A DNA stretch of 48,908 bases from a virus. Its lineage: Duplodnaviria > Heunggongvirae > Uroviricota > Caudoviricetes. Location: the IMG/VR virus record IMGVR_UViG_3300028454_000679, one strand, 5' to 3'. The translations under genes were made by a program, and so were the position numbers. The notes beneath the pieces were generated by a model. That model saw only the letters and a list, made by a program, of their open reading frames with translations. It searched no databases and had not been told where the DNA came from. Below are positions 1-30,114 of the stretch, in pieces; position 1 is the stretch's first letter, and each line of letters opens with the position of its first letter.

Positions 1-266
1 ACCCCCATCGTGTCCAAGAGTGGTAAAATCATATGGCCAACCCAAATACACTCACCCCTAAAGTACAATCCAAAGTCATCTGTAAGACACTCTGGTGGTG
101 CAAAGTACTTTAGATACTCCTGATTCGGCACAAAGATGCTGTTCAACTCTCGTGGGCTAAACTTTGACCTACGCACTTCAAAAATACTGTTAAAGAAATG
201 AGTCTGGGAAGCAGCGTCCTCATCCCAGACTCTTTTAACAATATCAAAATATCTTGCATCCATCAT
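1..266 (-). CDS. N-terminal part of an ORF running off the window edge; possible DnaG-like primase
   Basis: Not in the ORF track. ATG at 266 overlaps the upstream TGA (ATGA). Open to the edge: MMDARYFDIVKRVWDEDAASQTHFF...DDFGLYFRGECIWVGHMILPLLDTMG. The last segment resembles DnaG 'RFRNRIMFPIRD..G'. Confidence 0.35.
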   Translation of the reverse strand, partial: MMDARYFDIVKRVWDEDAASQTHFFNSIFEVRRSKFSPRELNSIFVPNQEYLKYFAPPECLTDDFGLYFRGECIWVGHMILPLLDTMG

Positions 267-1168
267 AATACAAATACGACCATTTCCTGCTTGAAAATAT
301 CCTTCAGAACTGCTCGACTGTAAGGTACTGCTGGGAAGGATTTAGTTTCGCCTGCTATAGCATATGCCTTACTTTTGAGATTACCATCCTTAAAGGAGCC
401 GGACTTTACAGTAATATCTTCTGCAACACAGAAAACACCTTCCTCCTGTGTGATAGCATTGCGGTTAATAAACAGCATAGGTTTATTGAAAGTAAAGTTG
501 GAACGACTGACTCTATCCAAAAGCATAGCCAACACATTATTGTTAAAGTCAGTATGTACACCCTCAAGAGTGCTGCTCATAAAATTAACAAGTGCTTCCT
601 GTGTGCTAAAGTACACGTAATCAGGACTGATTTGCCTAGCCACCTTCAGCTCCCTATCCTTTGTCCAAGAAGTCAGAAAAGCTCTCTTCACAAAAAGCTG
701 CTCGAAGAACTCATAAGTAGATGCAAACTTAGTGTATGGTGGTAAATCCAGTGATGCTGGTTTATCAATGACAGCATCAATAATAAATGAGCCACCATTA
801 ACAGCCTCTGCAATATCAGCCTCTGGAATACCAAGAGTGAAAGCAACATAAATTGCCAGTGGAGTCAACTGGTCAATATGGATAGCTGTGTTAAGCAGCT
901 CAATCATTGGCACTGTTAGTTTCATATTAGATGTAACAAGTGCATAGGCTATATCCAGAATCTCTCCAAATGCCTGAAAAGTTTCATTATCTATACCCTC
1001 TGCTAGAGCGGAGTCTCTAACCTTTGCAGCTATATTAGCATAAAGGTCAGTGTCATCAGAGACTCCTAACAGCTTTTTATAGTAATCAAAAGCATTCACA
1101 CCTTGATGCAGATTCAAATACATTGGAATGTCATCCCAAACAGACTTTATTTTCTCAAAGTTTCCCAT
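263..1168 (-). CDS. Hypothetical protein (301 aa)
   Basis: Long ORF with SD GGAGGT 4 nt before ATG; no recognisable motif. Confidence 0.8.
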   Translation of the reverse strand: MGNFEKIKSVWDDIPMYLNLHQGVNAFDYYKKLLGVSDDTDLYANIAAKVRDSALAEGIDNETFQAFGEILDIAYALVTSNMKLTVPMIELLNTAIHIDQLTPLAIYVAFTLGIPEADIAEAVNGGSFIIDAVIDKPASLDLPPYTKFASTYEFFEQLFVKRAFLTSWTKDRELKVARQISPDYVYFSTQEALVNFMSSTLEGVHTDFNNNVLAMLLDRVSRSNFTFNKPMLFINRNAITQEEGVFCVAEDITVKSGSFKDGNLKSKAYAIAGETKSFPAVPYSRAVLKDIFKQEMVVFVL

Positions 1169-1177
1169 AACTACCTC

Positions 1178-1792
1178 CTACTGTAAATCCATGAGTTTGT
1201 AAGTTTTCTTGACTGGCTTGAAAATCTCCAAGCTATCATCAGTTACCTGATAGAGTATCTTACCAAAGTTCACTTTAGTGTTCTTAGGTACAGTTAGGTC
1301 AACTCCCATACGCAATTCACGTAAAAGGTTTAAATTCTCCGGCGGGTCAATGATGCTTGCACTTACAAGATATTTCAGGTGCTTCCAGGCATCCGAATTA
1401 TAATAATCTGTCAGTAGGATATCACGCTCTTTAAACTTTGGCATTGCATCACACACTTGAATAACACTCGCAACAAACCTGTGAATAAACTGTTCAGGTG
1501 TGGTAGCAAGACGAGCATCTATATACGCTTCGTTAAACATTGGTACACATCTACCATCGCCTAGCCATACAAGCTTTGCACAATGTTCATGAGTGTTATA
1601 CACATTTGCAATAAGGTCTTCAATACTAGAACCAAGAAACTTTTCAACAACCTTCTCATCCACCTGCTGTCTTGCGGCATACTGAAAGATATTGATAGTT
1701 CCATACTTTGTTGTACGCACTCTGGTAGCTAAGTCATTCAACATAGTGTCCTCAAAGTGACAACTTTCTGTGAATACAGTTGATTTCTTCAT
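1178..1792 (-). CDS. Hypothetical protein (204 aa)
   Basis: SD AGGAG upstream; follows an 89-nt intergenic gap; no recognisable motif. Confidence 0.8.
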   Translation of the reverse strand: MKKSTVFTESCHFEDTMLNDLATRVRTTKYGTINIFQYAARQQVDEKVVEKFLGSSIEDLIANVYNTHEHCAKLVWLGDGRCVPMFNEAYIDARLATTPEQFIHRFVASVIQVCDAMPKFKERDILLTDYYNSDAWKHLKYLVSASIIDPPENLNLLRELRMGVDLTVPKNTKVNFGKILYQVTDDSLEIFKPVKKTYKLMDLQ

Positions 1793-1881
1793 AAACTTAT
1801 CTCCTATCTCTGATAGCTTAAATGCTATAATTGTTAAAAATACGCTTGATTGGTAACTGCTGATTCGCTAACGCAATCACC

Positions 1882-2592
1882 CTAGTGCTTATTTTTAACA
1901 TAATTTAAATGCTCATAGTATAGCTTCTCTGACTGTTTTTCCAACTTGTCAAACAGCTTTGCTAAATTTCTCATATCCCACACAACTCTATCATCCTTGC
2001 ACAGAACAGATTCCCAGTTATTAAGAGATAACAGTGGCATAAGAGTTCTCGCATCCACTGTACGCTTATCCTCAACCTTGCCATCTGAAAAGACGAACAA
2101 AGCTATTTTATAAACCGGTAAATTGCCTTTTACAACAAAAGGTTTTGCCAATGTATCAAGAGTTTTTAAATGTAGCATGTTCTGCTTATAAACATCTGTG
2201 TTCTTGTATACACCCTTGCCTGTTAAAGTATTATTGCCCTTGTAGCTTTTACACTCAAAGAGATAAATACACTGTGGGGTGACAAGAGTTAAGTCCAATT
2301 CAGTTGAAAAGGAATCTGACAGATGCCCACGCTCCTTTAAAATAAGTCCCTTGTAGAGTAACCAATCCTTGCACTTCTCCTTATTCCTTAAGGTGTAATC
2401 CACAATAAGGCACTCCAGAACAACCTCACATACTTCTCCGTTAACCTGAGCTTGTAATTCTTCACCCAGACCAAAATCATGCAACGTTTCAGCTGCTAAC
2501 TTAACAAGAACGTCTATGCCATAATCCAAATAGATCTTAAAAAGGTTATCATGAATAGAATCATGTGTTCGCTTAACTCTATCATCACTCAC
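1882..2592 (-). CDS. NERD-domain (PD-(D/E)xK) nuclease
   Basis: ELDLTLVTPQCIYLFECKSYKG matches the NERD core EIDHL.I...GIFVIETKNY.G; GTG start overlaps the polymerase stop. Confidence 0.75.
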   Translation of the reverse strand: MSDDRVKRTHDSIHDNLFKIYLDYGIDVLVKLAAETLHDFGLGEELQAQVNGEVCEVVLECLIVDYTLRNKEKCKDWLLYKGLILKERGHLSDSFSTELDLTLVTPQCIYLFECKSYKGNNTLTGKGVYKNTDVYKQNMLHLKTLDTLAKPFVVKGNLPVYKIALFVFSDGKVEDKRTVDARTLMPLLSLNNWESVLCKDDRVVWDMRNLAKLFDKLEKQSEKLYYEHLNYVKNKH

Positions 2593-4336
2593 AGATATCT
2601 AACACCTTCACACTTTTAATAGAGTTAATCTCATTCTCTGTCCAATTGTAAACTGGCACCGGAATTTGATTCTTTTGGGCATAAACGTAGTAAGCATAGC
2701 TGTTCAGCATCTGACACCTATCCGGAATATTCTTACATTGAATAAAATCAATAGGTATATCCTCTAAGACAACGGCATCGTCATTAAGCGTCGTGTAAAT
2801 ATAAATTGCATTGTACCCAACCCTCTTCACACCTTGCAGATACTTTGACAACATAGATACTGTATGCTCGAAGACTGGGGTACTTTCTGGAAATGCAAAA
2901 TGAGATGCTCTGTCATTTACTCCGTCATAAAGAGTTGCGATAACAGTGCCATCTAACCGTCGTAAACCTAAAGAGTAAACAGCTGCACAGACTGGTGTGT
3001 AGGTCATCTTACTCTCACTTGGTCGCAGAACATCAACTTGGAATTGACTGCTACTGAACTGAAGCATAAGTTTTGTATCAATATTCTTATACCTTCTGCC
3101 AAAGCAGAAATCTACATGAGGGTAAAGAACCCAATCGTCCACTACAATATCCTCAAAGTTATGCAACCATCCAATAGAATCCATACAGGACTCTTTCAAA
3201 TAAAAGATAGGCTCATCATGTCGTGTTAGGTAAAGTCCAAAGTCCTCTTCTGACAACCCTCTTGAACGTGCCTCTTTTAAGATAGAAGTAACTAAGTTAA
3301 TAATAAGCTCACTTGTTCCTGTCTGTACCGGGGCATTCAAACGATCGTTGACTGTCTCCGATGCACTATACTTAGGTAAACGTAATTGCTCATATCCAAA
3401 GTAACTCCGCAACTTCAGTGGGATATTAGAAGTCTCTTGTAAGAACTTATAATACTTTACATAGTTAGGGCAAGTCATAAGAAACGCAGTGATAAGCTTG
3501 ATAGCTTCATTCTCCTCTTTCACTGTTGATGAACGTGTACCATATACAGTGGCTAAGACAAGCTGTTTGTACATGGCACGATTCTCTTTAAACTTTGCTT
3601 CATCAAACTTAAGACCATTCTTCTCATAGATCATTCTGTAAAGGGCCTCATACTTGTCATCATACCGCCTCATAAGGCGATCGCTTTCCTCACTACGCAT
3701 AAAACAGTTGTATGCTACACGGAAGTCTGACTGCGCGAAGTCTCCCCATACAAGTACATAACCTTCCGGCACAGTAATACTATTTACAAAGTCCCTTGGA
3801 ATCTGTGAAATAATATCACATGACTTGTAATTGTAGCGCAAGTTGACCTGCTGAGACACTTCAAAGGAAAGCTTATAAATCTCTGAGCCGTCTGACAACT
3901 GTAATGGGCTGTGGCAAGACTCAGCAACGGACTTAAGCTTACTGCTAATCGATTTAGCTGACTGCATATCATTGTACATCTCAAGGAACTCATGAGCGTA
4001 GTTATTAGCATAAAGCTTGTCCAAGACTTTACCCCTGTCTAAGGAAAATCCTTGCTTGCCTCGAACCTTAAAGTAATGGGAGGGGCAGTGCTCGTAGTCA
4101 ACAAGAAAGTTGTAAATATCATTTCTGTTCAAGCCAAGTGGCTGGAATCCAGAAGAATAATTCATATAGTTAAGAATAACTTTCTCTGTTGAAGCCTGCC
4201 GTGATTTGTACTCACATGCACCCTGCAAAAGCATATCCCTGTCTACGTAAATAAAACACTTAGAACTTATTGCTTTCTCATACCCATCAATATCGAGTGG
4301 GTAATTATTATTTATTTTGATCATAATACTCTCCAA
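2585..4336 (-). CDS. Family A DNA polymerase, polymerase domain only (no 3'-5' exonuclease), divergent motif A
   Basis: Motif A WGDFAQSDFR, motif B RAMYKQLVLATVYG, RLNAPVQTGTSEL, motif C LTRHDEPIF; no Exo I/II/III motifs. Confidence 0.88.
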   Translation of the reverse strand: MESIMIKINNNYPLDIDGYEKAISSKCFIYVDRDMLLQGACEYKSRQASTEKVILNYMNYSSGFQPLGLNRNDIYNFLVDYEHCPSHYFKVRGKQGFSLDRGKVLDKLYANNYAHEFLEMYNDMQSAKSISSKLKSVAESCHSPLQLSDGSEIYKLSFEVSQQVNLRYNYKSCDIISQIPRDFVNSITVPEGYVLVWGDFAQSDFRVAYNCFMRSEESDRLMRRYDDKYEALYRMIYEKNGLKFDEAKFKENRAMYKQLVLATVYGTRSSTVKEENEAIKLITAFLMTCPNYVKYYKFLQETSNIPLKLRSYFGYEQLRLPKYSASETVNDRLNAPVQTGTSELIINLVTSILKEARSRGLSEEDFGLYLTRHDEPIFYLKESCMDSIGWLHNFEDIVVDDWVLYPHVDFCFGRRYKNIDTKLMLQFSSSQFQVDVLRPSESKMTYTPVCAAVYSLGLRRLDGTVIATLYDGVNDRASHFAFPESTPVFEHTVSMLSKYLQGVKRVGYNAIYIYTTLNDDAVVLEDIPIDFIQCKNIPDRCQMLNSYAYYVYAQKNQIPVPVYNWTENEINSIKSVKVLDICE

Positions 4337-4582
4337 CTAGAACCCAAATGCATTACCTAAAACACCAACTGGATTATCAAGAACGCCATCAGCCTTTAAT
4401 TTGAAGACAAATGCAAGAAAGGCTATAACTGCAATAATCTCAATCCACTCTTTGGTTTTTAGGGAAATTTTAGCACCAAGGTCAGGTTTCTTAAATCCGA
4501 ATTTTTGCGGACTACTAGCTTGCTCTTCAGCACTGCCTTCATCCGTCTGAGGAACCTGTTCCTCCAATTTCTCTTCAGCCAT
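4337..4582 (-). CDS. Small single-pass membrane protein (81 aa)
   Basis: Start moved to MAEEKLEE (SD GGAG, directly after the FtsK stop); acidic N-terminus, hydrophobic IEIIAVIAFLAFVF. Confidence 0.7.
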   Translation of the reverse strand: MAEEKLEEQVPQTDEGSAEEQASSPQKFGFKKPDLGAKISLKTKEWIEIIAVIAFLAFVFKLKADGVLDNPVGVLGNAFGF

Positions 4583-4583
4583 A

Positions 4584-6677
4584 CTAAATTTCTCCATCAA
4601 AATACATCTTTTTGTACTTCTGTAAATCATCACCACGGGAACTGTTCCACAGAGCTGCTAGAGTATCCAACATACTCTCTGGCATAACATCACAACCAAT
4701 TCTACGAACATCACGTTGTGATGGTCTGTCCATAACATACCACAGGAATCCACTCTTTAAATCTGAAAACTCCATCATATTAGTAGTAAACATAAGTACT
4801 CTAACATTCACAAGGCAACAATCTAGAAGAATCTTTCTAAACTGCGCAAGATTCTTACTGCTGGAATCAGTACCGAAACCGATAATTCTATCAGCTGATG
4901 TAATCCACACATAAATCTTCTTAAACTGTGATGCCTGTATTTGCTTATTCTGACACTCTAAGTTCTCCCAAACGTTATAAAGTTCTGTAAAGTAAGCATC
5001 ACAAGCATCCTCAGACATACCACCAATCTCTTTTGAGTATGCTGGGTCATCACTTATGAAAGCGATAAAAGCAAAATAGCGTTGCTTCAGTATCTTGCTA
5101 GCCGGTAACTTAGATGCCACAGAGCTAGAATCCCATAACTCATCAAACCCACTCTCTATAGCACCATTGAAAACTTTCTTGTCAATATCCAGAAGCAATT
5201 TACGTTGATAAACAGTCTTATGCAGTAAAGCGAAACATGTACTATCGTAACTTCTATCATCAAAGAGTAAACCACCTAAGTGTGGTTTCAATAGTGCGTT
5301 CATTTGAGACTCTGGAGCTATACCAATATTCAAAGCATTCTGACGTGTGATAGAGTAAAGAAATGTTTGAGCAGTCCTTCTAAGGTCAACATCATCCTTA
5401 GAGATTGCTAGCACATTCTCAATGCTGTTAGTTCCAAATGGAATAAACACAGCCTGCTCTTCACTACGAATCATATAAGCAGGGTCTCCCATAACAATAC
5501 GGTCGGAAGTGTCAAAAGAGTTTACGAATACTTCGAACTCCTTCTCATGCCTTACAGCTGTCTCATCGTAAAATCGCATAGGCTGAGAGAAGCCAATCTT
5601 ATCAGCCTGCTCTTTAGTGGATTTGTAAATATCCTTAACAGAGGCATCATTACAGAATGGCACTGAAATATTGATATTATCAGCTTTATCACCACGAGTA
5701 ACGTTCTCATTGATAATAAGCTTACCTTTTTGTCCCATATTAGCAGATGCAGCTTCGTTACCAATAACAGCTTGGGATACTTCTGGGAAAGCACCCAGAC
5801 ATGCACGGAATGTAACGTTCTTTAAAAGACCCTTTGGAATATCAGAACCAATCTCCTGCGAGCACATATAAAGGTGGAAACCAGTAGCACGACCCTTACG
5901 TCCTAAGAGGTCAAGCATCTTCGCAATCTTATCAGCTTTTCTTCCGGCATTCATAAACATAGCTTGGAACTCGTCGAACACCATAAGATTACGATGTAGG
6001 GTAAGACCAGTGACTTCATTAAAGTCCATAATATTACGGATAGTCTTACCAAAATGCTTACTAGCAATAGGGAACATCTTCTCTGTTGCTTCCATCTCGT
6101 TGACTTTACACTCTAAGACCGAAATAAGGTAATCTGCATCTCCCGTTGCAGCTACTGCTTCAATATGAGGTAATGGAGTTGTCATCGCAATATTCTTAAA
6201 TTCCAAGACCTTACCATCAGAAAGCGTGTAGTGTAATGCCCAGGGTGGATACTTGTAACATGAACCGAAGATAATAGCATTCAAGGCAACTGATTTTCCT
6301 GAACCTGTTGAACCTGCCATAAGTCCATGAACAAACTTATCACCTAAACCTCCCTCAAACAGTGATGAACTATCTCCGTTAATATACCCAGCCGGTATAT
6401 GAATCTCATCAGTTGTATCACCAATCCACATTGGACCATACTCACCTATCATAGGTTCAGTAATTGTAAACTCGCAGGCTGGTTCAAAATCACCCCTAAG
6501 CATACTGTAAACATCTTTAGGTACTCTTACAGTGTATGGGTAGGTATGATTGTCTGGAGTCTTCGACATCATGTTTTTAATAAAGTCTGCCTCAACAATA
6601 GCAAGTGAGGCAGACTTGTAAGCTTTGTAAAACTCTCTGGTTTGTTTTTCAATATCTTCCTTAGAAACTGTTAACAT
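4584..6677 (-). CDS. FtsK/SpoIIIE-family ATPase of EssC/EccC type (active domain plus degenerate second domain)
   Basis: HGLMAGSTGSGKS (Walker A), SDGKVLEF, LPHIEAVA, LMVFDEFQ (Walker B), GRKGRATGFHLYMCSQ. The C-terminal half keeps the fold pattern without a P-loop. Confidence 0.85.
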   Translation of the reverse strand: MLTVSKEDIEKQTREFYKAYKSASLAIVEADFIKNMMSKTPDNHTYPYTVRVPKDVYSMLRGDFEPACEFTITEPMIGEYGPMWIGDTTDEIHIPAGYINGDSSSLFEGGLGDKFVHGLMAGSTGSGKSVALNAIIFGSCYKYPPWALHYTLSDGKVLEFKNIAMTTPLPHIEAVAATGDADYLISVLECKVNEMEATEKMFPIASKHFGKTIRNIMDFNEVTGLTLHRNLMVFDEFQAMFMNAGRKADKIAKMLDLLGRKGRATGFHLYMCSQEIGSDIPKGLLKNVTFRACLGAFPEVSQAVIGNEAASANMGQKGKLIINENVTRGDKADNINISVPFCNDASVKDIYKSTKEQADKIGFSQPMRFYDETAVRHEKEFEVFVNSFDTSDRIVMGDPAYMIRSEEQAVFIPFGTNSIENVLAISKDDVDLRRTAQTFLYSITRQNALNIGIAPESQMNALLKPHLGGLLFDDRSYDSTCFALLHKTVYQRKLLLDIDKKVFNGAIESGFDELWDSSSVASKLPASKILKQRYFAFIAFISDDPAYSKEIGGMSEDACDAYFTELYNVWENLECQNKQIQASQFKKIYVWITSADRIIGFGTDSSSKNLAQFRKILLDCCLVNVRVLMFTTNMMEFSDLKSGFLWYVMDRPSQRDVRRIGCDVMPESMLDTLAALWNSSRGDDLQKYKKMYFDGEI

Positions 6678-8791
6678 TTCAGTAATATCTCCCTAAATGC
6701 CAGGTATGCTTTAGAAGACTCAAACATTGTTTGTACATTCTTTGCAGTACCAAATAACGCTTGTCTATAGCTAGTTATAACAACTGCCATAATCATACCT
6801 AACGGTACATCTTTGTTGTTTGTAGGATGTGACGTTCCTTCGAGGATTGTGTATCTTACAAACTGCTGTGATGCATCTGGTCCTACACTAAACAGGCTCA
6901 AATCAGCCTGTGCTATAACCTTACCATTGAAAACAATGTTAGCCACATTCTGAAGTGTCGGGGTTCTGTAAATAACAGACTCATCTACAGTAGATGCAGG
7001 TTGTGCCTGAGGCTGTGGTTGTGGTTGAGGCTGTGGTGCAGGTTGTGCCTGGGGCTGTTGTGTAGGCTGTGGCTGTGGTTGAACCTGTGGCTGTGGTGCA
7101 GGTTGTAATACTGAGCCAAATACGCTTGAGGTTCCAACACTTGCCGGTTCAGATTGAGTGACAGGCTCAGGCTGTGGTTGCTGCTGAGGCTCAGGCTGTT
7201 GTGCTGACGCTGGTACTGCACTTTGAGCTGGCTGAATACAACCAATAAACTTAGACAACAGCGGAGCATTAGGTGTAGCCTGATTCTCTGCATAAATCTC
7301 CAAGAATAGCAATTGCAGTTTTGTACCGAAACCAAGTGCAGCTTTGTTATCCAATTCTGCAGCTGTGGAAGAAAGGAGTGAATCCAAAGGAGTGCCACTG
7401 CTAATAAACTGCTGGACGTAATCATTAGACAAAGCGTTCTCGTAAGACAGAGAAGCTGCTTCCTCCTTATTAAGATTAAACACTTCCAAACACTTTTCCT
7501 GCTCAGGAGTCAACTCAATATTCTGGGCACCTGCTGCAATACCACGCTCTTCCTCTGTTACAACACCAAATGCAATAAAACCTGCGTTAAGGTCAAAGAC
7601 AGGGAAGTCCTCTAAATCATCGAAGACTAGATACTGAATTTTACGTTCTCCCCAACGGGCAATATAAATGATTGCCTTTATGATATAAGAACTGTCTGCA
7701 TCGACACTTAGCTTCTTCAAATAGTGCTGCAGAGCAAGTATAGCATTCTGTGCAACTGACTCTTTAGTTGTACCTACACTCCACACATACCTGGAGTCAT
7801 CAGAATCATACATGCTATCACTTTTACCTTGAGTATCATATACTATATTAATTGGCATATTCGTCAGATGTCTATGCCCTTTCATATAAAGTAAAGATGC
7901 TAACTCAAGTAAGTAGTTCTGAGTTATCTCATCATAGTAAACTGCACCGGTCTCCTCATCCAACATACCACCATACTGAACTGCATTGATTGCTGCCCAC
8001 TTTGTTAACTCCTCGTAGTATCTTCTCTCATTATCAAGAATCTCCGGAACAAAGTTATCCTGTGAACCCAAAACCATATCAAGCATTGCCTGGGAACCAT
8101 TACAAGCATAACGGTACTCTGGGCTATTCATAATGTCATTAGGATACTCTGAACCCAGTGCCTCTAAACTTGGGAGCACATACGCATAGTTCCCATCGTA
8201 GGACTCCAAAGCTGCATGTGTAGGAATCTCAAAGAATAACTCATCGACTGGTGTAGTCTGAAAATGATTCTGATTATTCTTGATAACACCTGTTGTGATA
8301 GCAGTTGCATCCTTCATAGTATTAAAAGTCTCAGGGAACTGAGGACTGTAATATGCAGGTAAAGATGGTAAACCATTATGTAAGTCCGGAGCTGTTCTCC
8401 ACATCAGCTCACTTGCAAACATAGCTGTAAAGTCTACACCGGAAATTCCCTCGGATGTAAATATCTCGTTAATGGCTTCTCTAATATCCGGAGAAATATT
8501 TCCTAGGTCTGGAACTATCTCGGTGATAGTGTCAAGCACATTACTCACCTGAATAGTGTTTACACTACTGGCATCATTCAGAATAAGACAAGGCCAACAA
8601 CCCTGTGGGTATGCTATTGAACACTTAAGCCCACTGCCTAAGATGGAATTCAATAACTGATGGTCTTGCATAAATAAAATGGTAGTTGGAACATATTGAA
8701 TTGTCCCATTATTGTCTATACCTACTGCCACCACTAAATTACAGGTGACACCATTTACTTCTCTGGTGTCAATAAAAACATTAGAAATCAT
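6671..8791 (-). CDS. Hypothetical protein (706 aa) with Pro/Gln-rich linker before a small C-terminal domain
   Basis: SD AAGGAG; overlaps the FtsK start; PQPQ low-complexity tract. Confidence 0.8.
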   Translation of the reverse strand: MISNVFIDTREVNGVTCNLVVAVGIDNNGTIQYVPTTILFMQDHQLLNSILGSGLKCSIAYPQGCWPCLILNDASSVNTIQVSNVLDTITEIVPDLGNISPDIREAINEIFTSEGISGVDFTAMFASELMWRTAPDLHNGLPSLPAYYSPQFPETFNTMKDATAITTGVIKNNQNHFQTTPVDELFFEIPTHAALESYDGNYAYVLPSLEALGSEYPNDIMNSPEYRYACNGSQAMLDMVLGSQDNFVPEILDNERRYYEELTKWAAINAVQYGGMLDEETGAVYYDEITQNYLLELASLLYMKGHRHLTNMPINIVYDTQGKSDSMYDSDDSRYVWSVGTTKESVAQNAILALQHYLKKLSVDADSSYIIKAIIYIARWGERKIQYLVFDDLEDFPVFDLNAGFIAFGVVTEEERGIAAGAQNIELTPEQEKCLEVFNLNKEEAASLSYENALSNDYVQQFISSGTPLDSLLSSTAAELDNKAALGFGTKLQLLFLEIYAENQATPNAPLLSKFIGCIQPAQSAVPASAQQPEPQQQPQPEPVTQSEPASVGTSSVFGSVLQPAPQPQVQPQPQPTQQPQAQPAPQPQPQPQPQAQPASTVDESVIYRTPTLQNVANIVFNGKVIAQADLSLFSVGPDASQQFVRYTILEGTSHPTNNKDVPLGMIMAVVITSYRQALFGTAKNVQTMFESSKAYLAFREILLKC
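6995..7215 (-). repeat. Coding low-complexity repeat (PQPQ/QPAPQ)
   Basis: Iterated ggctgtggtt / ggttgtgc units on the plus strand encoding the Pro-Gln linker. Confidence 0.8.
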
Positions 8792-8873
8792 GCTTCACTT
8801 CTCCTTTATCCATTTCTCCTGTTATTTTCTAAGTTTAACTATCTTAGAACCACTAAAGACTGCTTTGGCTCTG

Positions 8874-8893
8874 GTTTTTCATGTATTTATAGG
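8874..8893 (-). promoter_or_regulatory. Candidate promoter motif, copy A (CCTATAAATACATGAAAAAC)
   Basis: 16/20 identical to copy B at 9636-9655; intergenic, just downstream of a terminator; -10-like TATAAA(TA) without a spaced TTGACA. Confidence 0.5.
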
Positions 8894-8932
8894 TCAAAGA
8901 CTGAATTTTCCTAGTATCCGTGTATAACCGCA

Positions 8933-8954
8933 AAAAGGGGCTTACGCCCCTTTT
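8933..8954 (-). terminator. Intrinsic terminator after the two ~100-aa genes
   Basis: Minus strand AAAAGGGGC-GTAA-GCCCCTTTT(T): 9-bp inverted repeat, GNRA loop, U-tract; potentially bidirectional. Confidence 0.85.
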
Positions 8955-8972
8955 CCATTTCAAAACTGCTGC

Positions 8973-9302
8973 TTAGGTTAAGCTTGGCAGAACTGGTTTC
9001 TTGAAATGTGCCTCATTTGCAGCCTTCTTAGTTTCCTCAACCTGATACTTGTTGAAGTGTGCTGCGAATTCCGGAATCTGCTCGGTGAACAGTTTAATAA
9101 GATCTTCCCAAGGTTTGGTAAAGTCATTATACTGTCTCTCTAATTCCTTTGTCTGCTCAAAGACATCGTCAATAAGCTTGTTCTCTCCTGTGTAAGGAAT
9201 ACACAACTCGCCAAGTGCAACAAAGGTATCTAACATATCAGTGTTAGCGATATCTGCTAACTCCTTAGCAACCTGATCTAACTTCTCTTCACTAATTCTC
9301 AT
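8973..9302 (-). CDS. WXG100/ESAT-6-like helical protein (109 aa)
   Basis: N-terminus MRISEEKLDQVAKEL, central YTG at 37-39 (WxG position), C-terminal YQVEE (YxxxE); TAATG-coupled to its partner. Confidence 0.5.
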   Translation of the reverse strand: MRISEEKLDQVAKELADIANTDMLDTFVALGELCIPYTGENKLIDDVFEQTKELERQYNDFTKPWEDLIKLFTEQIPEFAAHFNKYQVEETKKAANEAHFKKPVLPSLT

Positions 9303-9595
9303 TACTGCTCGCCTCCTTCACCTTGCATAGATTCATAGGACTGCATCAAGAACCGTCCACAGTCAATAAGCTGTTCGAAGTATGCTTCATACATCTTCAC
9401 ATTGCTCTCAACTAATGGTTCAGCTGTTTTAGCTGCCTCTACAATAAGTTTGATATCTTCCTCTTTACCAACTTCCTCTACAAGGGAAAGAGCATGACGT
9501 AATTTACTAGGAATAGTTTCTTTCCATTCCTCTCCTTGGCTACGCATCTTCTTCGCAGCTTCATACAATTCTACGGAAACACCCATACTAGCCAT
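9302..9595 (-). CDS. WXG100-like helical protein (97 aa)
   Basis: Perfect SD AAGGAGGT; amphipathic helices with central EVG turn; N-terminus MASMGVSVELYEAAKKM resembles Esx proteins. The W is absent. Confidence 0.4.
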   Translation of the reverse strand: MASMGVSVELYEAAKKMRSQGEEWKETIPSKLRHALSLVEEVGKEEDIKLIVEAAKTAEPLVESNVKMYEAYFEQLIDCGRFLMQSYESMQGEGGEQ

Positions 9596-9635
9596 TTGCA
9601 GCTACCTCCTTATTTGGATTAGTGGACTCTTTTTT

Positions 9636-9655
9636 GTTTAGCACGTAATTATAGG
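9636..9655 (-). promoter_or_regulatory. Candidate promoter motif, copy B (CCTATAATTACGTGCTAAAC)
   Basis: Contains TATAAT; about 40 nt upstream of the 97-aa gene; 16/20 identical to copy A; no -35 at 17 nt. Confidence 0.5.
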
Positions 9656-9691
9656 AGGCATCCACATAAAAAGCAGTATGATTTATTCAAG

Positions 9692-11386
9692 CTATTTAGC
9701 TGTAATCTGACGCTTTATAAAGGTGGCACTACGTGACTGGATTTTATCAGTAGCTAAATAGATACGTTGAAACAGGTCAAGGTCAAGTTCCAAGTTACCA
9801 GAGATAATGTCATCGTAAGCAACAAACTTCATAATGTAGTAACCATACTTTCTACCATTCTTCAAAATCTTGGTTGTAGACTCTTCTAATGGTTCATTAG
9901 TGAAGTCAATGATAACATGGTACGGTATCATTGTTGCATTGATTGACTTCATATGCCCATTGTATTCTGCAATATTCTGACTATCGCTGTTAATAGTCAT
10001 AGAGTTGTTAATCATACTTTGAAGCAGTTCTCCATACTCTTTCTTGATATCCGCTATATCCGTCTTCATATAAAACGTGAACTTTAGGTTATCCTCAGCA
10101 GGTGCAAACTTCTGCAAGTATGTTCCCAAGTATTTCGTATCGAAAACTGAAATTGCAAGACAATGAGGGTCTACTTGTGAACGTATCTGATAGATAATAA
10201 GTGAGATAAGTGACGTCATCTCAAAGTCATCCTTGTAAAGAAACAGGCAGTCCTGATCACCAACATCAAAAGCGGTCACACTATAGTCAGTCATATTCAA
10301 ATCTGCTAAAAGCTTAAAATCATACTTAATGGCAGTGCCAGGGTTTGTAGACATGTAAGTATCCTTAATAGTATTAAAGGCGTTTACTAAATCCTGCTTG
10401 ACTGTTGAGAGATTAGCATTCTCCTTTGTAATCTCCTCCTCAATAAGAGTGCACTCTTGCTTGTTCTTATTCAGTTCTTCCTGCAGGTGCATTATCTCGG
10501 CAGCATACTCTTCCTTAAAGTGACTGCTATCAAATACCTCTGAGTCAGATAGAGCAACAGACTGTAACTCAGATTGCTCCTTAGCAATCTGTTGAGTCAA
10601 CTTAGTACTCCTAGAATCAAACTCTTCCTTTAGACTCTGTTTCTTTTCTAAACGAAACTCATTATACTCCTCATCCAACTTTGCAACTGTGTCAGCTGAA
10701 TTCTCATAAAGATACTTAGCTGCTTCTAAGTACTTAATAAGTGTGCCAGAGTACAAAAATGTAAGCACACCCACAGTTGTTAATGAAATTGTTAAGACAT
10801 AAGGTGCAAGAACAATTACAAGAACAAAAACAACAGCGAGGACAAACGAGTATTTATCAAGCTGATCTAAAAACTCACTTAAGTTGCTCAAAACACGTTC
10901 AAGAAAATTAAACAATCTACTATTATCATACTTCTCAGAGATTTCATTAAACTGGTCAACTGTGTAACTCGCTGGAGTTATATCAATATTCTCTGTAATA
11001 GACTCACGTGACACACCATAGAAGCCCTCTGCTGTACTAAGAAGATTACTGTATACTTCTAGTAAATCCTCTACAATATGAGAGTTATCCATAGAGGCAC
11101 TGTCAAGCGCCTCTACTTCACTACGATACTGTTTTTCCAGACCATCCTTTTCCTGCTGTAAGTCAGAAATCTTTTTCAGATACTTCTGCCGCTTTTGTAA
11201 AAGGATTCCATCTTCAAACTCCTGCTTTGCCTGCACTTCCTTTTGAGTTTGAGAATTCATAGAATCAGTTAGACTCTGTTGCAGCTGCTCGCAAGTCTTC
11301 TTCTGTGCTTCGAGCTTATCCTCTAGATTCTTTATCTCTCGCTCTTTCCTAAGTGCAGCATCAGCAAACTTATTTATATCTAACAT
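9692..11386 (-). CDS. Coiled-coil membrane protein with a C-terminal degenerate FtsK/EssC-like ATPase fold
   Basis: Long heptad coils flank a hydrophobic hairpin (FVLAVVFVLVIVLAPYVLTISLTTVGVLTFLY). The C-terminus (ISVFDTKYLG...IPYHVIIDF...ILKNGRKYGYYI) follows the FtsK motif order without Walker A. Confidence 0.5.
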   Translation of the reverse strand: MLDINKFADAALRKEREIKNLEDKLEAQKKTCEQLQQSLTDSMNSQTQKEVQAKQEFEDGILLQKRQKYLKKISDLQQEKDGLEKQYRSEVEALDSASMDNSHIVEDLLEVYSNLLSTAEGFYGVSRESITENIDITPASYTVDQFNEISEKYDNSRLFNFLERVLSNLSEFLDQLDKYSFVLAVVFVLVIVLAPYVLTISLTTVGVLTFLYSGTLIKYLEAAKYLYENSADTVAKLDEEYNEFRLEKKQSLKEEFDSRSTKLTQQIAKEQSELQSVALSDSEVFDSSHFKEEYAAEIMHLQEELNKNKQECTLIEEEITKENANLSTVKQDLVNAFNTIKDTYMSTNPGTAIKYDFKLLADLNMTDYSVTAFDVGDQDCLFLYKDDFEMTSLISLIIYQIRSQVDPHCLAISVFDTKYLGTYLQKFAPAEDNLKFTFYMKTDIADIKKEYGELLQSMINNSMTINSDSQNIAEYNGHMKSINATMIPYHVIIDFTNEPLEESTTKILKNGRKYGYYIMKFVAYDDIISGNLELDLDLFQRIYLATDKIQSRSATFIKRQITAK

Positions 11387-11970
11387 GTACTCACCAAAAC
11401 AAATTCAACAAATGCATCATAAAGTGCTGTGTGGTATGTATTTTGTGCACCCTTTATTTTAAAGGCATTACATACATCAACAAACACCTCATTCAGAAGC
11501 TTCTTGTCCAGCCCAAAGATAGATGGAGCATTCTCTAACTTCAGCTTACGTTGCCCCACTTGGCTACCAACTAAGGACATAGCATTGCAATAGCCGGAAC
11601 CACCTTTTGGTTTTGTCTCACTACCAAAGTCCCAACGGTCATATCCATTGATAGTAAGTGTCTGATTTATAAGCCGTCTATCAAAACCACCAGATGACCA
11701 ATCAAACCAAATAACATCAGTACCCAGAGCTTCTGCCCACGGTATAAATTGCTGTTCAAAGAAAAGCCCCTTTGACCTAACATTCAAGGTATGCTTGTCA
11801 ATACCATGGACTGCTAAAGCACCCTTGGAAATTGGTTGAGTTGTGTAACAGAAGAAATCAACTACGTCAAGCAGACTATAGTTCTCATCTGTTACCACAG
11901 CCGCAAACTCTATAACCTCATCCTTTGCAGACAAGCCTGTAGTTTCTACATCATAAAATACATACTTCAT
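11380..11970 (-). CDS. DEDDh 3'-5' exonuclease (DnaQ/epsilon-like)
   Basis: Exo I YDVETTGLS, Exo II GGFDRRLI, Exo III YHTALYDA. Confidence 0.9.
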   Translation of the reverse strand: MKYVFYDVETTGLSAKDEVIEFAAVVTDENYSLLDVVDFFCYTTQPISKGALAVHGIDKHTLNVRSKGLFFEQQFIPWAEALGTDVIWFDWSSGGFDRRLINQTLTINGYDRWDFGSETKPKGGSGYCNAMSLVGSQVGQRKLKLENAPSIFGLDKKLLNEVFVDVCNAFKIKGAQNTYHTALYDAFVEFVLVSTC

Positions 11971-13120: not shown

Positions 13121-13783
13121 CTACACTGAAAAAGTATTAGATGTTTTAACACTGTGTGCAGCCACCTCGGTATTAGCAGCACCCTCATGAGCTGTAGCGA
13201 TACTCAAGGGTGTAGTGTTGCCATCCATACTCTTTAAAACTTGACTTACAAAAAGTAATGCTGTAACACCATTCAAATCCACAAATGGTTTTGCAGATTC
13301 GTCCTTACTCAGGGACTCTCTCAAACATGGCTCTAGATAACTCAGAAGATCCTCAGAGACTTTAAAATCTGGAAGGAACTTCTTGCTATCCCCTGAGATA
13401 ACATCGAAACAATCGAATCCCTTATTCTTACAGTAAACGGCTGTTATGACATAAAGTGTTTGGGTTCCAAAGTACTCTGAAAGACAAAGTGGGTTCTGCT
13501 TCAACTCAAAGAGTGTAAAGTCACGCTCAACACTAAGACTACTATGCTCTTCATCGCAATCATAGCTATAGTATGGTACATGAATCTTACCTATCTTAAT
13601 GGTGTCACCCTCTAAAGTGAAATTCATAGTTGATGCACCCTCAAGACTACCAAACTCGCTCTGAATAGACTTGATTGAACAATCACGAACAAATGCCAAC
13701 TTAAAACGAACGCTATCCTCTAAAGAGATAGACTTGAAAAAGTAACCATTATGCCAAATACTATCAAGACTGAGTATCTTCAT
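13121..13783 (-). CDS. Hypothetical protein (220 aa)
   Basis: SD AGGAGG; overlaps the upstream ORF. Confidence 0.78.
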   Translation of the reverse strand: MKILSLDSIWHNGYFFKSISLEDSVRFKLAFVRDCSIKSIQSEFGSLEGASTMNFTLEGDTIKIGKIHVPYYSYDCDEEHSSLSVERDFTLFELKQNPLCLSEYFGTQTLYVITAVYCKNKGFDCFDVISGDSKKFLPDFKVSEDLLSYLEPCLRESLSKDESAKPFVDLNGVTALLFVSQVLKSMDGNTTPLSIATAHEGAANTEVAAHSVKTSNTFSV

Positions 13784-26247: not shown

Positions 26248-29200
26248 CTAACCTAATGAATCAATATATTTATCCAAATCCTCTATTGGAATATTCTTAT
26301 TTATAAACCCACCATTAACAAGTGTAGTGGCAATCTTAAACTTACATAGGTAACCTGTAGCACCCTTGTAAGGCTCTAGATACTGACGTGCTGCCATTAA
26401 CTGTGAACGATTCCTGATACTGATAAACAACTGATTCTGCCTTATTGCTACATGCTTTGGTGAATAAATTTCTTCCTTAATAGGCTCTTCGTAAGTATCC
26501 TCATCTGACAGATAGAAACCAATATCGTCGTCAATGATATCTTCCAAAATACCATCTAGACTATCATCCTCTGTTGTAGCGTCCTCAAACTCTCCATAAT
26601 CTGAGAAAAGTGCTGGGGTAAAGATTGCGGATTTCTGTACTGTATTTGATGTAGACTTAACTGGTGTAAGAACAGTTCCGTCCTTATCCACATAGTCCTT
26701 TACATGACCGTAGTAAAGTTCTGACCATGTTAACAGTGATGCAAACCACTCAGCATTTGAGAAAGCATCCTCATCATAGACTGGCTCTCCAGTGGTCTTA
26801 TGACTTAGTAGGAAATCCTCTTTGTTCACCTTAAAGTACTTAGGATAGTCCGCAACGTAAGCACGTACCGTGTAGTTATCGAAAGCATCTATAATACGCT
26901 GAGGTTGTAAAGGTGCACTGTCCACATCAGGCTGTATTCCTGCAACCACCTGATGTATTCGTTCTAAGTGGAACTGCTTCATATACGGTTTAATAAAGTC
27001 CATAGGGTGGTCAAACCAGAAGTGCCCATCCTGCTTAAACTCATCAGGCGTATTCTCTAAAGAAAACTCACCTGCATCATACCTATGAACAATATCCTGT
27101 ACCATAAGCACTGGTGCTTCATTAGCATCGTCTTTACACTCACCCCAAGAATCGCCAATATTGATACCAATAAAATAATTAGTATGATTCTTCATAGTAA
27201 TCATACATGCTTCCTTGGCTATCTTGTAAATCTCAAATGGATGAATACTCTTATGGACAGAACAGAGTAACTCATCATGGATAAGCATATGCCAAATAAC
27301 CTTGTCACCATGATGGTAACCTCTCTCCTCACACCCTTTGTAAAACCGCATAAGGATAAGACGGAACAACTCTGCAGCAAACGACTGAATACCATAGTTA
27401 CCTGCGGCTCTTCGAATTGTTGCCTCTGCACCAAAGTAGCGTCCATTTGCACGACGCTGCTTATCCTCTTCCGTCATACCAACCTTGGAAAGGTCAAACA
27501 CACGATAAAATCCATAAGCCGACTGTACACGGGAAACACGTGAGGGAATCTTATTGCCATGCTGGTCTAACTTGTAAACTGGGAGTCCAAGATTATCCTT
27601 TTTGACAACTAACTTACCTTTATCATTCATGACCATCTCTTTCTCCCACGCACCTATATAGTTACGTAACTCTGTAGAGATATTCCATTCCTGCAATGCA
27701 TTATCCCTTGCACTGTTCAGTAAATCCATAACAGGTGCGTTTCCGGCTTTCCATTTAGCAAGCATCTTATCAGTCTCTGCAAGTGTATAGTCGTTAACAA
27801 CACCAAACATAGCCTCACACAGTGCTAACCTACCAAGACCGTAAGGAATACCGAAACCTAAACACTTGGTCTTCTTACGAATATCCTTTGTAACCTTGTA
27901 GGCGGGAATACCATGAACTTCTGAAGCAGTCTCGGTATGATAATCCTTTTCTGGGTCACGCATACGCTCAATAAGCTCTGTGTACCCAGCAAGACTGACC
28001 ATAACACGATACTCAGCCTGAGACATATCGAAGTCGAGTAAATAGTAATCGTCATTGTAAGGTTTAATAAACTTTTTAAGCTTACCTTTCATAGTCTGAC
28101 CGGGGTTAGCAATACGACGTGTTTCAATACGAGCCATATTGTAATTCTTAAAGAGTCTGCCCTCTGAGTTATCCTCAAGAATCGGCTTATAGTATGCAGT
28201 GTACTCCTTATTCAATTCTGAGTACTTCTGAAGAATAATGGAGATTGGATACTCTCTCGAATTGAAGTCCTCTTTAGAGATAAGTACATGAGATTTAGCT
28301 TCTTTTGGATTACTCTCAAGAAGAGCATTGTACTCCTCTCTAGTCGTCCCATAAGTCAGTAAATCGTGTGTTATACCACGTACCTTGCTATTAGGTGATT
28401 TAGGCACTGCAGCCATTTTCTTCAAGACGTACTTATCAAGCTTAGGCTTTGTGGGATCCTTTTCACTAAAGGCAAACTTCTTGTAATGTAATACGTCGTA
28501 AATAATATGGCTTAAGTTAGCAGGGGTGAATTTAAAGTCGTAGAATGCATCGTTATTTACTGTTATGCTGTTAAGACCTTTCTCATAATCCTCATCACTT
28601 AAATCACCTATATTATGGAAATTTTCAAGTTTAAACACCTTGGATTGCAAATCGTAAATCGCACCAACGTAAGACTTGACAAAATTCACCAGAATATCAA
28701 TATTGCCCTTAACTTCTTCTCCAAGGAGTCGAACATTATCAACATCTGCAGTCATACCGTAGTACTCACTGACTGGCAGGACATTCTCTAAAAGGGAGTC
28801 CTGTTTCATGTACATATTATAAAGATCAGGTCCCATAAGATTTTTCAAGGAAAGGTAAATCTGTCTGGCATAGTCAGAGTCGGCACAACCGTAAACACAT
28901 GCAACTTCTTTATCCACAAGCATACGGAACTTATCGGCATTACCTTTACCTAAAATATCCTCTAACTCTGGTGTTTCATGTCCATAAAATCTACGAGTAA
29001 GAGTTTTCAATTTATTGTTACCACGAACCTGTTTAGGGTCTAAACAAAATGCCATCTGTAGAGAGTCACAGTCTACATAAATAGGGAATCCCTCACTGTA
29101 AAAAACTTTACCATCGAACATAATGTTATGCCCTGTCAATAAATAAGCTTTTCTGTCAAGGAAGTGATATTCTCCATCTATCTCAATACCCATAGCATCC

Positions 29201-30114
29201 GCTTTGAAGATTTCCTGGAGTTTCCCTAATGCATACTTTTTATCCACATTAGAGAAAAACTCCATATCGAAGAACACTATAACACCCTGATTGTCCTCCC
29301 AACTAAGCTGTGCGGTAACAATTCTGTCCTTGTCAGCTGTGTTACGTATCTTAAGACCACTGGTCTCCGTATCGAATCCAACTATAACTGGATTCTCTCG
29401 TGTTGCCTTTTCTAAAGTTGAAACAAGTGGTTTTAAAAGATACTGGTTAAAATCAGTGATAGATTCTATTGCACGATAGTCCTTTAGCTTCACGCCATCC
29501 CTACTGTACCAAGACATATCAGAGGTAGCGTAAAGGTCTGACATACGAATAGCTCCAACTGTCAATTCTGAAACACGATTGCTAATAAGTGCAGATACTT
29601 CAGAAAGTGCTACCTTTGGTAGTTTAATCTTTGAAGTAGTTGGCTCCAAAGTTATTGAAAAGTCCTTAATCTGTATTTTCATAGATTCCAACATAGAATT
29701 TACGTAAGAATACTTTACACGGACATCTTGACTAACTGCTTCGAAAACCTGTCTGTCACTATCCCCAATGCATATTTGCTTATCCTGAACAATCTCATCC
29801 TCAGTAAATGGTAATCCTCTTACAGTAGAAAAGACTCTTAGAATTGTTTCGATAACAGAACTACCATATTTTGTATCGGGGACTTTCTTTCCCTGTACAT
29901 AAATCTCCTCAATACACGTGTCGATATCATCCCGCTTAAAATCAGCAGGGTACACCACTGGATTATGCAATGGTTGGATACCATTTTTCATTCGGTCAAT
30001 GTCCTCTGCATTGTACAGATTAGCAAGAACGTAGACTACCTTATTTGAGTAAGACATGACACACATTGTGTATTGCTTATCACTTACTGTACATCTACCA
30101 ATACAAGTTAGCAT
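26248..30114 (-). CDS. polA: Family A DNA polymerase with 3'-5' exonuclease and long N- and C-terminal extensions (1288 aa)
   Basis: Exo I GFDTETSG, Exo II GHNIMFD, Exo III YGCADSD; motif A DFDMSQAEYR, motif B RKKTKCLGFGIPYG, AAGNYGIQSFAAE, motif C LIHDELL. Confidence 0.92.
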   Translation of the reverse strand: MLTCIGRCTVSDKQYTMCVMSYSNKVVYVLANLYNAEDIDRMKNGIQPLHNPVVYPADFKRDDIDTCIEEIYVQGKKVPDTKYGSSVIETILRVFSTVRGLPFTEDEIVQDKQICIGDSDRQVFEAVSQDVRVKYSYVNSMLESMKIQIKDFSITLEPTTSKIKLPKVALSEVSALISNRVSELTVGAIRMSDLYATSDMSWYSRDGVKLKDYRAIESITDFNQYLLKPLVSTLEKATRENPVIVGFDTETSGLKIRNTADKDRIVTAQLSWEDNQGVIVFFDMEFFSNVDKKYALGKLQEIFKADAMGIEIDGEYHFLDRKAYLLTGHNIMFDGKVFYSEGFPIYVDCDSLQMAFCLDPKQVRGNNKLKTLTRRFYGHETPELEDILGKGNADKFRMLVDKEVACVYGCADSDYARQIYLSLKNLMGPDLYNMYMKQDSLLENVLPVSEYYGMTADVDNVRLLGEEVKGNIDILVNFVKSYVGAIYDLQSKVFKLENFHNIGDLSDEDYEKGLNSITVNNDAFYDFKFTPANLSHIIYDVLHYKKFAFSEKDPTKPKLDKYVLKKMAAVPKSPNSKVRGITHDLLTYGTTREEYNALLESNPKEAKSHVLISKEDFNSREYPISIILQKYSELNKEYTAYYKPILEDNSEGRLFKNYNMARIETRRIANPGQTMKGKLKKFIKPYNDDYYLLDFDMSQAEYRVMVSLAGYTELIERMRDPEKDYHTETASEVHGIPAYKVTKDIRKKTKCLGFGIPYGLGRLALCEAMFGVVNDYTLAETDKMLAKWKAGNAPVMDLLNSARDNALQEWNISTELRNYIGAWEKEMVMNDKGKLVVKKDNLGLPVYKLDQHGNKIPSRVSRVQSAYGFYRVFDLSKVGMTEEDKQRRANGRYFGAEATIRRAAGNYGIQSFAAELFRLILMRFYKGCEERGYHHGDKVIWHMLIHDELLCSVHKSIHPFEIYKIAKEACMITMKNHTNYFIGINIGDSWGECKDDANEAPVLMVQDIVHRYDAGEFSLENTPDEFKQDGHFWFDHPMDFIKPYMKQFHLERIHQVVAGIQPDVDSAPLQPQRIIDAFDNYTVRAYVADYPKYFKVNKEDFLLSHKTTGEPVYDEDAFSNAEWFASLLTWSELYYGHVKDYVDKDGTVLTPVKSTSNTVQKSAIFTPALFSDYGEFEDATTEDDSLDGILEDIIDDDIGFYLSDEDTYEEPIKEEIYSPKHVAIRQNQLFISIRNRSQLMAARQYLEPYKGATGYLCKFKIATTLVNGGFINKNIPIEDLDKYIDSLG

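Follow-up and report, generated by a model that had tools for sequence, protein, structure and literature searches.

A clade of small family A polymerases with a conserved aspartate at the sugar-gate position in giant elements of Clostridia

We analyzed a 48,908-nucleotide stretch of viral DNA (IMG/VR record IMGVR_UViG_3300028454_000679, hereafter the window) and identify P0002, a small family A polymerase in which the glutamate residue of the sugar gate is replaced by aspartate. This aspartate and a leucine at the position of Klenow F762 (Leu762) are held throughout a deep clade of relatives. The polymerases also lack an exonuclease domain, carry an RNase H-like domain at the C terminus, and have an obligate neighbor in a NERD nuclease, and this combination of features is new. 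The reading that we prefer, held tentatively and at a little less than an even chance, is a gap-filling or primer-extending polymerase with a remodeled sugar pocket and relaxed discrimination against ribonucleoside triphosphates (rNTPs).

A second family A polymerase without an exonuclease domain

The gene, the polymerase domain and its motifs lie at the following positions:

2585..4324, minus strand: gene of the small family A polymerase (P0002, 579 aa), from open reading frame (ORF) calls and the public gene call
3077..4312, minus strand: complete polymerase domain (thumb, palm, and fingers), P0002 residues 5–416, from the model and superposition
3719..3742, minus strand: motif A DFAQSDFR with catalytic D195, Gln198, Ser199, and Asp200, from phmmer, profile, and alignment
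3539..3580, minus strand: motif B (O helix) RAMYKQLVLATVYG with R249, K253, Y261, and G262 kept, from phmmer, profile, and alignment
3317..3340, minus strand: motif 6 LNAPVQTG with N330 and Q334, equivalent to the Klenow minor-groove readers N845 and Q849, from profile and alignment
3209..3223, minus strand: motif C RHDEP with H369-D370-E371, equivalent to Klenow H881-D882-E883, from profile and alignment

The probable start of P0002 is the ATG at 4324, which is preceded by GGAGAG and agrees with public gene calls; the TTG at 4336 chosen by the ORF finder (ORF 2585-4336(-)) falls within this ribosome-binding site. P0002 has no match in Pfam (none even at E 10), PHROGs, or PADLOC, and NCBIfam returns two weak PolA-type matches, the better at E 1.1e-4 and 20.6 bits where the curated cut-off is 640. 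About half of the P0002 homologs carry a precomputed PF00476 match that the highly divergent P0002 itself lacks. By phmmer, P0002 aligns with Aquifex Pol I (8jrb) at E 5.7e-4, with three motifs aligned free of gaps and GDFAQSDFRVA of P0002 opposite ADFSQIELRIA. A profile of the P0002 family searched against Protein Data Bank (PDB) sequences reached a best E of 0.0012, weaker than the single-sequence query, and structure comparison was needed.

An AlphaFold2 model of P0002 built on 85 homologs (pLDDT 91.4) matched KlenTaq, Bst, and mycobacterial (Msm) Pol1 in Foldseek with E ~1e-14. In the comparison with Klenow that the initial annotation had proposed, the whole polymerase domain superposes, with P0002 residues 5–416 lying on Klenow 523–928 at Z 24.3 by VIA-align (Pol nu, Z 26.3), and matches to Pol nu, Pol theta, Klenow, the apicoplast polymerase, and T7 share Z-scores of 24–26 with root-mean-square deviations of 3.4–4.0 over 374–387 aligned residues. 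P0002 has the thumb-palm-fingers architecture in common with Klenow, KlenTaq, and the Bst large fragment (Z 23–24, ~375 residues), together with all catalytic residues, but is 14–16% identical to these enzymes and differs from them at E710 (Asp), I709 (Ser), F762 (Leu), V880 (Arg), and A757 (Tyr). Pol theta and Pol nu are the top structural matches (Z 25–26), with Klenow within ~2 Z units and thus tied. Like P0002, which lies among repair-type genes, Pol theta and Pol nu do not proofread; both retain Glu at the gate (E2335 in Pol theta, PMC6158600) and have characteristic insertion loops and an inactive exonuclease-like domain, whereas P0002 has none of these.

The profile pairs the P0002 motif columns with Klenow D705-Y-S-Q-I709-E710-L-R, R754/K758/F762/Y766, N845/Q849, and H881-D882-E883. 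The codon of Ser199 (3728-3730) occupies the position of Taq I614 or Klenow I709, the codon of Asp200 (3725-3727) the steric-gate position of Taq E615 or Klenow E710, and the codon of Leu257 (3554-3556) the position of Klenow F762 or Taq F667. Motif B retains the R-x3-K-x7-Y-G pattern, with R249, K253, Y261, and G262 equivalent to Klenow R754, K758, Y766, and G767. Motif A as DFAQSDFR at 3719-3742 and motif B with Leu at 3539-3580 are both exactly as the initial annotation gave them.

Klenow-type enzymes carry an exonuclease or vestigial exonuclease domain, whereas structure superposition finds none ahead of the P0002 polymerase domain, not even a vestigial one; because the polymerase domain begins at residue 5, P0002 has no N-terminal proofreading domain. 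An acidic set of the Exo I–III type is likewise absent, and the sole extra domain is C-terminal and lacks an invariant acidic residue. Fold and motif equivalence together bear out the claim of a second family A polymerase that lacks an exonuclease domain and keeps its catalytic residues, and the conserved motifs indicate that P0002 is very probably an active, proofreading-less, DNA-templated polymerase. A further ORF at 15254-17005, equal in length to the small polymerase ORF, was considered as a paralog and rejected on comparison.

An Asp gate conserved across the clade

We collected relatives of P0002 with a word-indexed search, which gave 87 clusters, and with an exhaustive HMMER search, which gave 241 representatives at E ≤0.001. 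Just these 241 of 1.84 billion representatives reach E 0.001 with the small-polymerase query, and no canonical PolA occurs among the 150 HMMER matches listed. Residue counts were made on 211 full-length relatives, mostly 27–45% identical to P0002. The gate residue is Asp in 210/210 relatives covering that position, and all 211 have Leu at the F762 position. Every member has D195 and D370, upholding the statement that the catalytic aspartates of motifs A and C are kept, and E371 is present in 210/211. The triphosphate binders R249 and K253, as well as Y261 and G262, are invariant in an 85-sequence alignment; in the 211-sequence set, 206 members have Tyr at position 261, 3 have Phe, and 2 have Asn, and the minor-groove readers R163, N330, Q334, and H369 are invariant in the clade. 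The absence of a Pfam match and the extreme sequence divergence could suggest an inactive pseudo-polymerase that serves as a scaffold only, but conservation of catalytic and substrate-binding residues throughout the clade makes this explanation extremely unlikely.

The DNA sequences of ten loci further reveal turnover at synonymous sites. The gate Asp is encoded by GAC in six loci and GAT in four, and four different codons are used at the Leu257 position, indicating that both residues are held by selection while the DNA drifts. Glu is a one-nucleotide change from Asp and occurs at the gate in none of the 210 relatives. A pattern search of IMG/VR for D[FY]xQI-E-LR[IV]xA gave at least 119 occurrences, and the same pattern with Asp gave 0. 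In the sequences compared, the Asp gate is a signature of this clade and not a general PolA polymorphism, and the remodeled sugar pocket is, as read from these alignments, under strong selection across the clade. The initial annotation had allowed that homologs might mostly carry the canonical Glu, and the uniform Asp of the relatives leaves its altered gate standing. The glutamate gate, placed five residues after the motif A Asp, is a conserved property of DNA-specific family A enzymes. With Asp in its place, P0002 ranks as a variant and not as a plain member of family A, and a literature search found no published account of a clade of natural family A polymerases in which the gate residue is other than Glu.

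Additional positions set the clade apart. W193-G194 before the catalytic Asp (3743-3748) and Y252 in the O helix (3569-3571) are each at least 90% conserved and clade-specific, and R368 before H-D-E (3221-3223) is invariant and clade-specific.

Sugar selection and the neighboring pocket positions

In family A polymerases, Glu615 of Taq or Glu710 of Klenow packs against C2′ of the incoming nucleotide and forms the steric gate (PMC6158600, PMC5627062, PMC4215692). Loss of the gate Glu, or a hydrophilic residue in place of the adjacent Ile, enables Taq and Pol theta to add ribonucleoside monophosphates (rNMPs) (PMC6158600, PMC5627062), and Taq I614K incorporates rNTPs 150- to 1500-fold better (PMC6158600, PMC5627062, PMC4215692). 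Engineered Taq I614K, SFR3 (I614T/E615G), and AA40 (I614M/E615G) are altered at the same two motif A positions as P0002, with a larger or more polar pocket at C2′ as the result (PMC6158600, PMC5627062); these laboratory mutants carry Gly or Lys, whereas the small-polymerase clade naturally carries Asp with Ser, Ala, or Ile beside it. A natural parallel exists in the Y family, where mycobacterial DinB2 represents a clade with Leu in place of the aromatic steric gate and is adept at rNMP addition (PMC4176160). DinB2 belongs to another family and fold and its function is biochemically shown, whereas rNTP use by P0002 is proposed here from its residues. In Pol theta the gate Glu has hydrogen-bond partners in the TGR-motif Arg, the motif B Tyr, and the motif 6 Gln (PMC6158600), and their counterparts R163, Y261, and Q334 are all conserved in the clade.

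The two positions beside the gate behave differently from each other. The I614-equivalent residue is Ser in 126 relatives, Ala in 42, Ile in 37, Val in 3, and Met in 2, and has changed at least 28 times on a FastTree phylogeny, so that Ser at this position is not fixed and the site is labile (S/A/I). At the F762 position, P0002 (L257) and all relatives counted above fall in the Leu762 group of the Schmidt/Nasko classification. Leu762 is the commonest PolA type in viromes (624/1215 and 934/2045 PolAs, PMC6302109), natural Leu762 PolAs can extend DNA primers in vitro, with strand displacement by some of them (PMC9069017), and a Taq Phe-to-Leu mutant is described as slower yet more accurate in the account of Suzuki 2000 cited in PMC9069017. 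Phe762 has been termed a 'steric gate assistant', with rNTP addition by Leu-type PolAs stated to be open (bioRxiv 10.64898/2026.05.20.726624). Because Leu762 is widespread and such enzymes extend DNA primers, Leu762 offers no evidence of a special substrate, and the suggestion that it marks a special enzyme has to be dropped.

A phage enzyme illustrates this group. We paired the PolA of Bacillus phage vB_BauS_KLEB27-1 with the small polymerase as a Leu762-type phage PolA (Schmidt 2014; Nasko 2018, PMC6302109; Keown 2022, PMC9069017), and it is the sole phage match by tblastn (E 9e-4). Like the small polymerase, it carries Leu762, within a similar motif B (KVIMLAVAYG versus KQLVLATVYG), and Leu762-type phage PolAs occur, as the small polymerase does, with UvrD-type helicases and nucleases and not with ring helicases. 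The KLEB27-1-type PolA has a Glu gate (DWSQQEYR), an N-terminal exonuclease-type region, and a length of 746 aa, whereas the small-polymerase clade has an Asp gate and lacks any N-terminal domain, and its extra domain, of RNase H-like fold, is C-terminal. Nearest by language-model features (0.95) are clusters of short phage PolAs in ESM Atlas (~435–445 aa), which consist of the polymerase domain alone and lack the C-terminal domain of P0002.

These data are also compatible with an ordinary dNTP-specific (deoxyribonucleoside triphosphate-specific) accessory DNA polymerase in which the Asp gate and Leu762 are lineage-specific, mutually compensated changes that leave substrate choice unaffected, a serious possibility and the main rival reading, to which we give a minority share of our belief. 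Such an enzyme would fill gaps, displace strands, or remove primers together with the NERD nuclease as a split analog of Pol I. All DNA-polymerase-type residues are kept, including motif C H-D-E and the N845/Q849 equivalents; Taq with Glu615 changed to Asp retains activity, as PMC4215692 mentions in citing Patel and Loeb 2000; the DNA-primer extension and strand displacement of natural Leu762 PolAs fit as well; the clade-specific R368, Y252, and W193 could compensate; and the nuclease partner is conserved. However, were Asp merely tolerated, a one-step reversion to Glu would be expected in more than 200 lineages and none is seen, and every other family A lineage sampled keeps Glu.

Gene neighborhood

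The window has 39% G+C, and its genes run on the same strand. It encodes a fused beta-beta′ RNA polymerase, a 1288-aa PolA, a class A penicillin-binding protein, an FtsK/EssC-like ATPase, and a NERD nuclease, and many of its ORFs have no family assignment. The genes of the polymerase array are:

1882..2592, minus strand: NERD (PD-(D/E)xK) nuclease gene, PF08378 at E 8.2e-9 and 36.4 bits (cut-off 22.1)
4584..6677, minus strand: FtsK/SpoIIIE/EssC-like ATPase gene, upstream of the polymerase in every related locus
11380..11970, minus strand: gene of a stand-alone DEDDh 3′-5′ exonuclease (RNase_T family, PF00929, E 3.5e-13)
3..266, minus strand: N-terminus of a Toprim-domain protein, cut by the window end, a conserved downstream array member

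The start of the NERD gene overlaps the polymerase stop by 8 nt, and the same junction in relatives ranges from a 1–8 nt overlap to a 2 nt gap. NERD residues E98, D100, E113, K115, Q137, and H141 are invariant in 20 relatives, and E98, D100, E113, and K115 form a complete PD-(D/E)xK site. All 12 related loci examined share the order FtsK-like ATPase, variable small gene, polymerase, and NERD, with Toprim a few genes on; these include three ~30%-identity relatives with a DFSQIDLR-type or DFPQADWR-type motif A. The association with the NERD nuclease and FtsK ATPase noted in the initial annotation thus extends to each of these 12 loci. A predicted complex of the polymerase and NERD scored 0.00, which speaks neither for nor against binding.

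Further members of the array point to DNA processing. The Toprim gene lies two to four genes downstream of the polymerase in relatives (13267-14070 in locus L001), and SbcC-like, SbcD-like, and UvrD-like genes follow further downstream in L001/L002, two overlapping copies of one close relative's locus. The DEDDh exonuclease gene heads the array that ends in FtsK-Pol-NERD and occupies the same place in six related loci, and this enzyme may be a candidate proofreader in trans for the exonuclease-less polymerase. A promoter and terminator scan of 1-12000 found no excess of sites over shuffled sequence.

A single 99-aa ORF lies between FtsK and the polymerase at 4337-4636 (minus strand) and overlaps the end of the FtsK gene; relatives L001, L010, L011, and L012 have an unannotated gene of 227–379 aa in this place, and the small gene may have been lost or truncated in the window. 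Elsewhere, an HNH endonuclease (PF01844, E 1.4e-9) is encoded at 33279-33740 (minus strand), two genes downstream of the fused beta-beta′ RNA polymerase gene, and the class A penicillin-binding protein at 44584-46929 (minus strand) is full, with transglycosylase and transpeptidase parts.

An RNase H-like domain at the C terminus

Beyond the polymerase domain, P0002 carries a second folded unit:

2588..3043, minus strand: C-terminal extra domain with an RNase H-like fold, P0002 residues 428–579, from the model and structure searches

The initial annotation did not mention this domain. Folded alone, residues 428–579 give a pLDDT of 92.5. Foldseek matches the domain to the HIV integrase core (E 6e-4, TM ~0.4), every one of the 50 top VIA matches has an RNase H-like fold (Z ≤6.9), as in PIWI, integrase, RNase H, and UvrC-C, and comparison with AFDB and Atlas likewise returns RNase H-like folds, at TM 0.5–0.58 in Atlas. 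The domain evolves fast (~15% identity across the family), and the family alignment contains no invariant acidic residue within it; of four partly conserved acidic positions, two are Thr and Val in P0002. An active RNase H or exonuclease was considered for this domain in P0002 and rejected for want of a conserved acidic set. It may instead be a non-catalytic module for interaction or nucleic-acid binding.

The architecture bears on the idea that P0002 is a PolA-derived, primer-independent RNA polymerase or primase of the T7 RNA polymerase (RNAP) kind, or an enzyme like a reverse transcriptase (RT). In single-subunit RNAPs, an aliphatic residue fills the 762 position ahead of a Y-G-[ST]-[KR] pattern, an arrangement that motif B of P0002 resembles, and a C-terminal RNase H-like fold recalls the architecture of retroviral RT. 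T7-like RNAPs, however, combine a Gly gate and H-D-[SA] in motif C with an N-terminal promoter-binding domain and a specificity loop, whereas P0002 has an Asp gate, motif C H-D-E as in DNA polymerases, neither of these added elements, and a one-to-one fit of residues 5–416 on Klenow. The RNase H-like domain lacks conserved catalytic acids, a Toprim protein is already encoded in the array, and the element brings its own multisubunit-type RNAP. We consider an enzyme of this kind very improbable, and with initiation-specific elements absent, the de novo primer synthesis that had been suggested finds no support.

Host range and the large PolA

The window encodes a second enzyme of the same family:

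26248..30114, minus strand: large canonical PolA, 1288 aa, with PF00476 and a weak exonuclease match

The large PolA has motif A DMSQAEYR with a Glu gate, and Phe at the 762 position in KCLGFGIPYG, confirming that the main PolA of the window keeps SQAEYR and F762. It is presumably the replicase of the element. In 4 of 5 related genomes, the contig with the small polymerase also carries an ortholog of the large PolA. The host Pol I (~885 aa) is located elsewhere, so that with the small polymerase, the large PolA, and the host Pol I a carrier cell has three family A polymerases.

The large PolA also bears on whether P0002 uses base- or sugar-modified dNTPs, which assumes that the element's DNA holds a non-canonical nucleotide. 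The nucleotide pocket is remodeled, and directed evolution for unnatural substrates repeatedly alters Taq 614/615 (PMC4215692). But the 49-kb window contains no recognized nucleotide-modification genes, the pocket of the presumed replicase is canonical, an odd arrangement if the genome were modified, and the altered residues touch the sugar and not the base; we accordingly hold this explanation to be highly unlikely.

Relatives of the small polymerase are placed in Lachnospiraceae, Clostridium, Wujia, and Acetivibrio ethanolgignens assemblies, one named relative is a Paraclostridium bifermentans protein, and none was found in IMG/VR or in the plasmid collection PLSDB. The small polymerase characterizes a deep clade that is restricted to giant extrachromosomal elements in Lachnospiraceae and related Clostridia. 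A literature search for giant Lachnospiraceae elements that encode an RNAP of their own found no published descriptions. Besides contigs of 100–300 kb, those of relatives P0007, P0033, P0055, and P0060 measure 0.5–1.4 Mb, and some elements may thus be much larger, integrated, or mis-binned with chromosomes. One Atlas cluster that probably belongs to the small-polymerase family is labeled 75% 'Viruses' on very few records.

Discussion

We propose that P0002 would fill gaps or extend primers within the element's own replication or recombination-repair module, with the NERD nuclease, the Toprim protein, SbcCD-like and UvrD-like genes, and the stand-alone DEDDh exonuclease as partners. The gate side chain, one methylene shorter than Glu and set beside a residue that is mostly small (Ser or Ala) and the non-aromatic Leu257, would leave room at the C2′/2′-OH. 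Discrimination against rNTPs could consequently be lower than in Klenow or Taq, in the manner of Y-family DinB2 or LigD-POL when dNTPs are scarce. P0002 may have measurably relaxed sugar selection, a proposition to which we lean with slightly less than half of our confidence. That rNTPs are its physiological substrate is unlikely, and the further notion of a clade of natural, primer-dependent 'ribo-tolerant' polymerases that make RNA or RNA/DNA stretches in replication restart or break repair is less probable still.

Several points weigh against relaxed sugar selection in P0002. The I614-equivalent position is labile in the aligned relatives, with Ile kept in 18% of members. Asp keeps the carboxylate and R163, Y261, and Q334 are conserved, so a compensated pocket with normal sugar selection is quite possible. 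The conserved synteny may partly mirror common descent and not functional coupling. Taq E615D is reportedly among the rNTP-using mutants that Patel and Loeb described in JBC in 2000; a literature search for E615D and E710D mutants gave unrelated papers only. Finally, Leu762 PolAs assayed so far behave as DNA polymerases (PMC9069017).

The Glu sugar gate has been taken to be invariable in the DNA polymerases of family A, and until now mutagenesis has been needed to open it. With its invariant Asp gate and Leu762, this deep natural clade, which comprises at least 241 clusters at 50% identity, allows sugar selection in family A polymerases to be tested directly. Were the clade indeed to make RNA or RNA/DNA stretches as 'ribo-tolerant' polymerases, it would represent in nature what the gate mutants of Taq and Pol theta achieve by engineering, and would be a living intermediate linking DNA polymerases of the Pol I type to RNA polymerases of the T7 type; should sugar selection prove normal, Asp can still replace the gate Glu given compensating changes. 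The small-polymerase clade is a possible source of natural enzymes for synthesis of RNA or xeno nucleic acid (XNA). For the giant self-transcribing, self-replicating elements of gut Clostridia, it provides a clue to a division of labor between a canonical replicase and a specialized, nuclease-coupled second polymerase.

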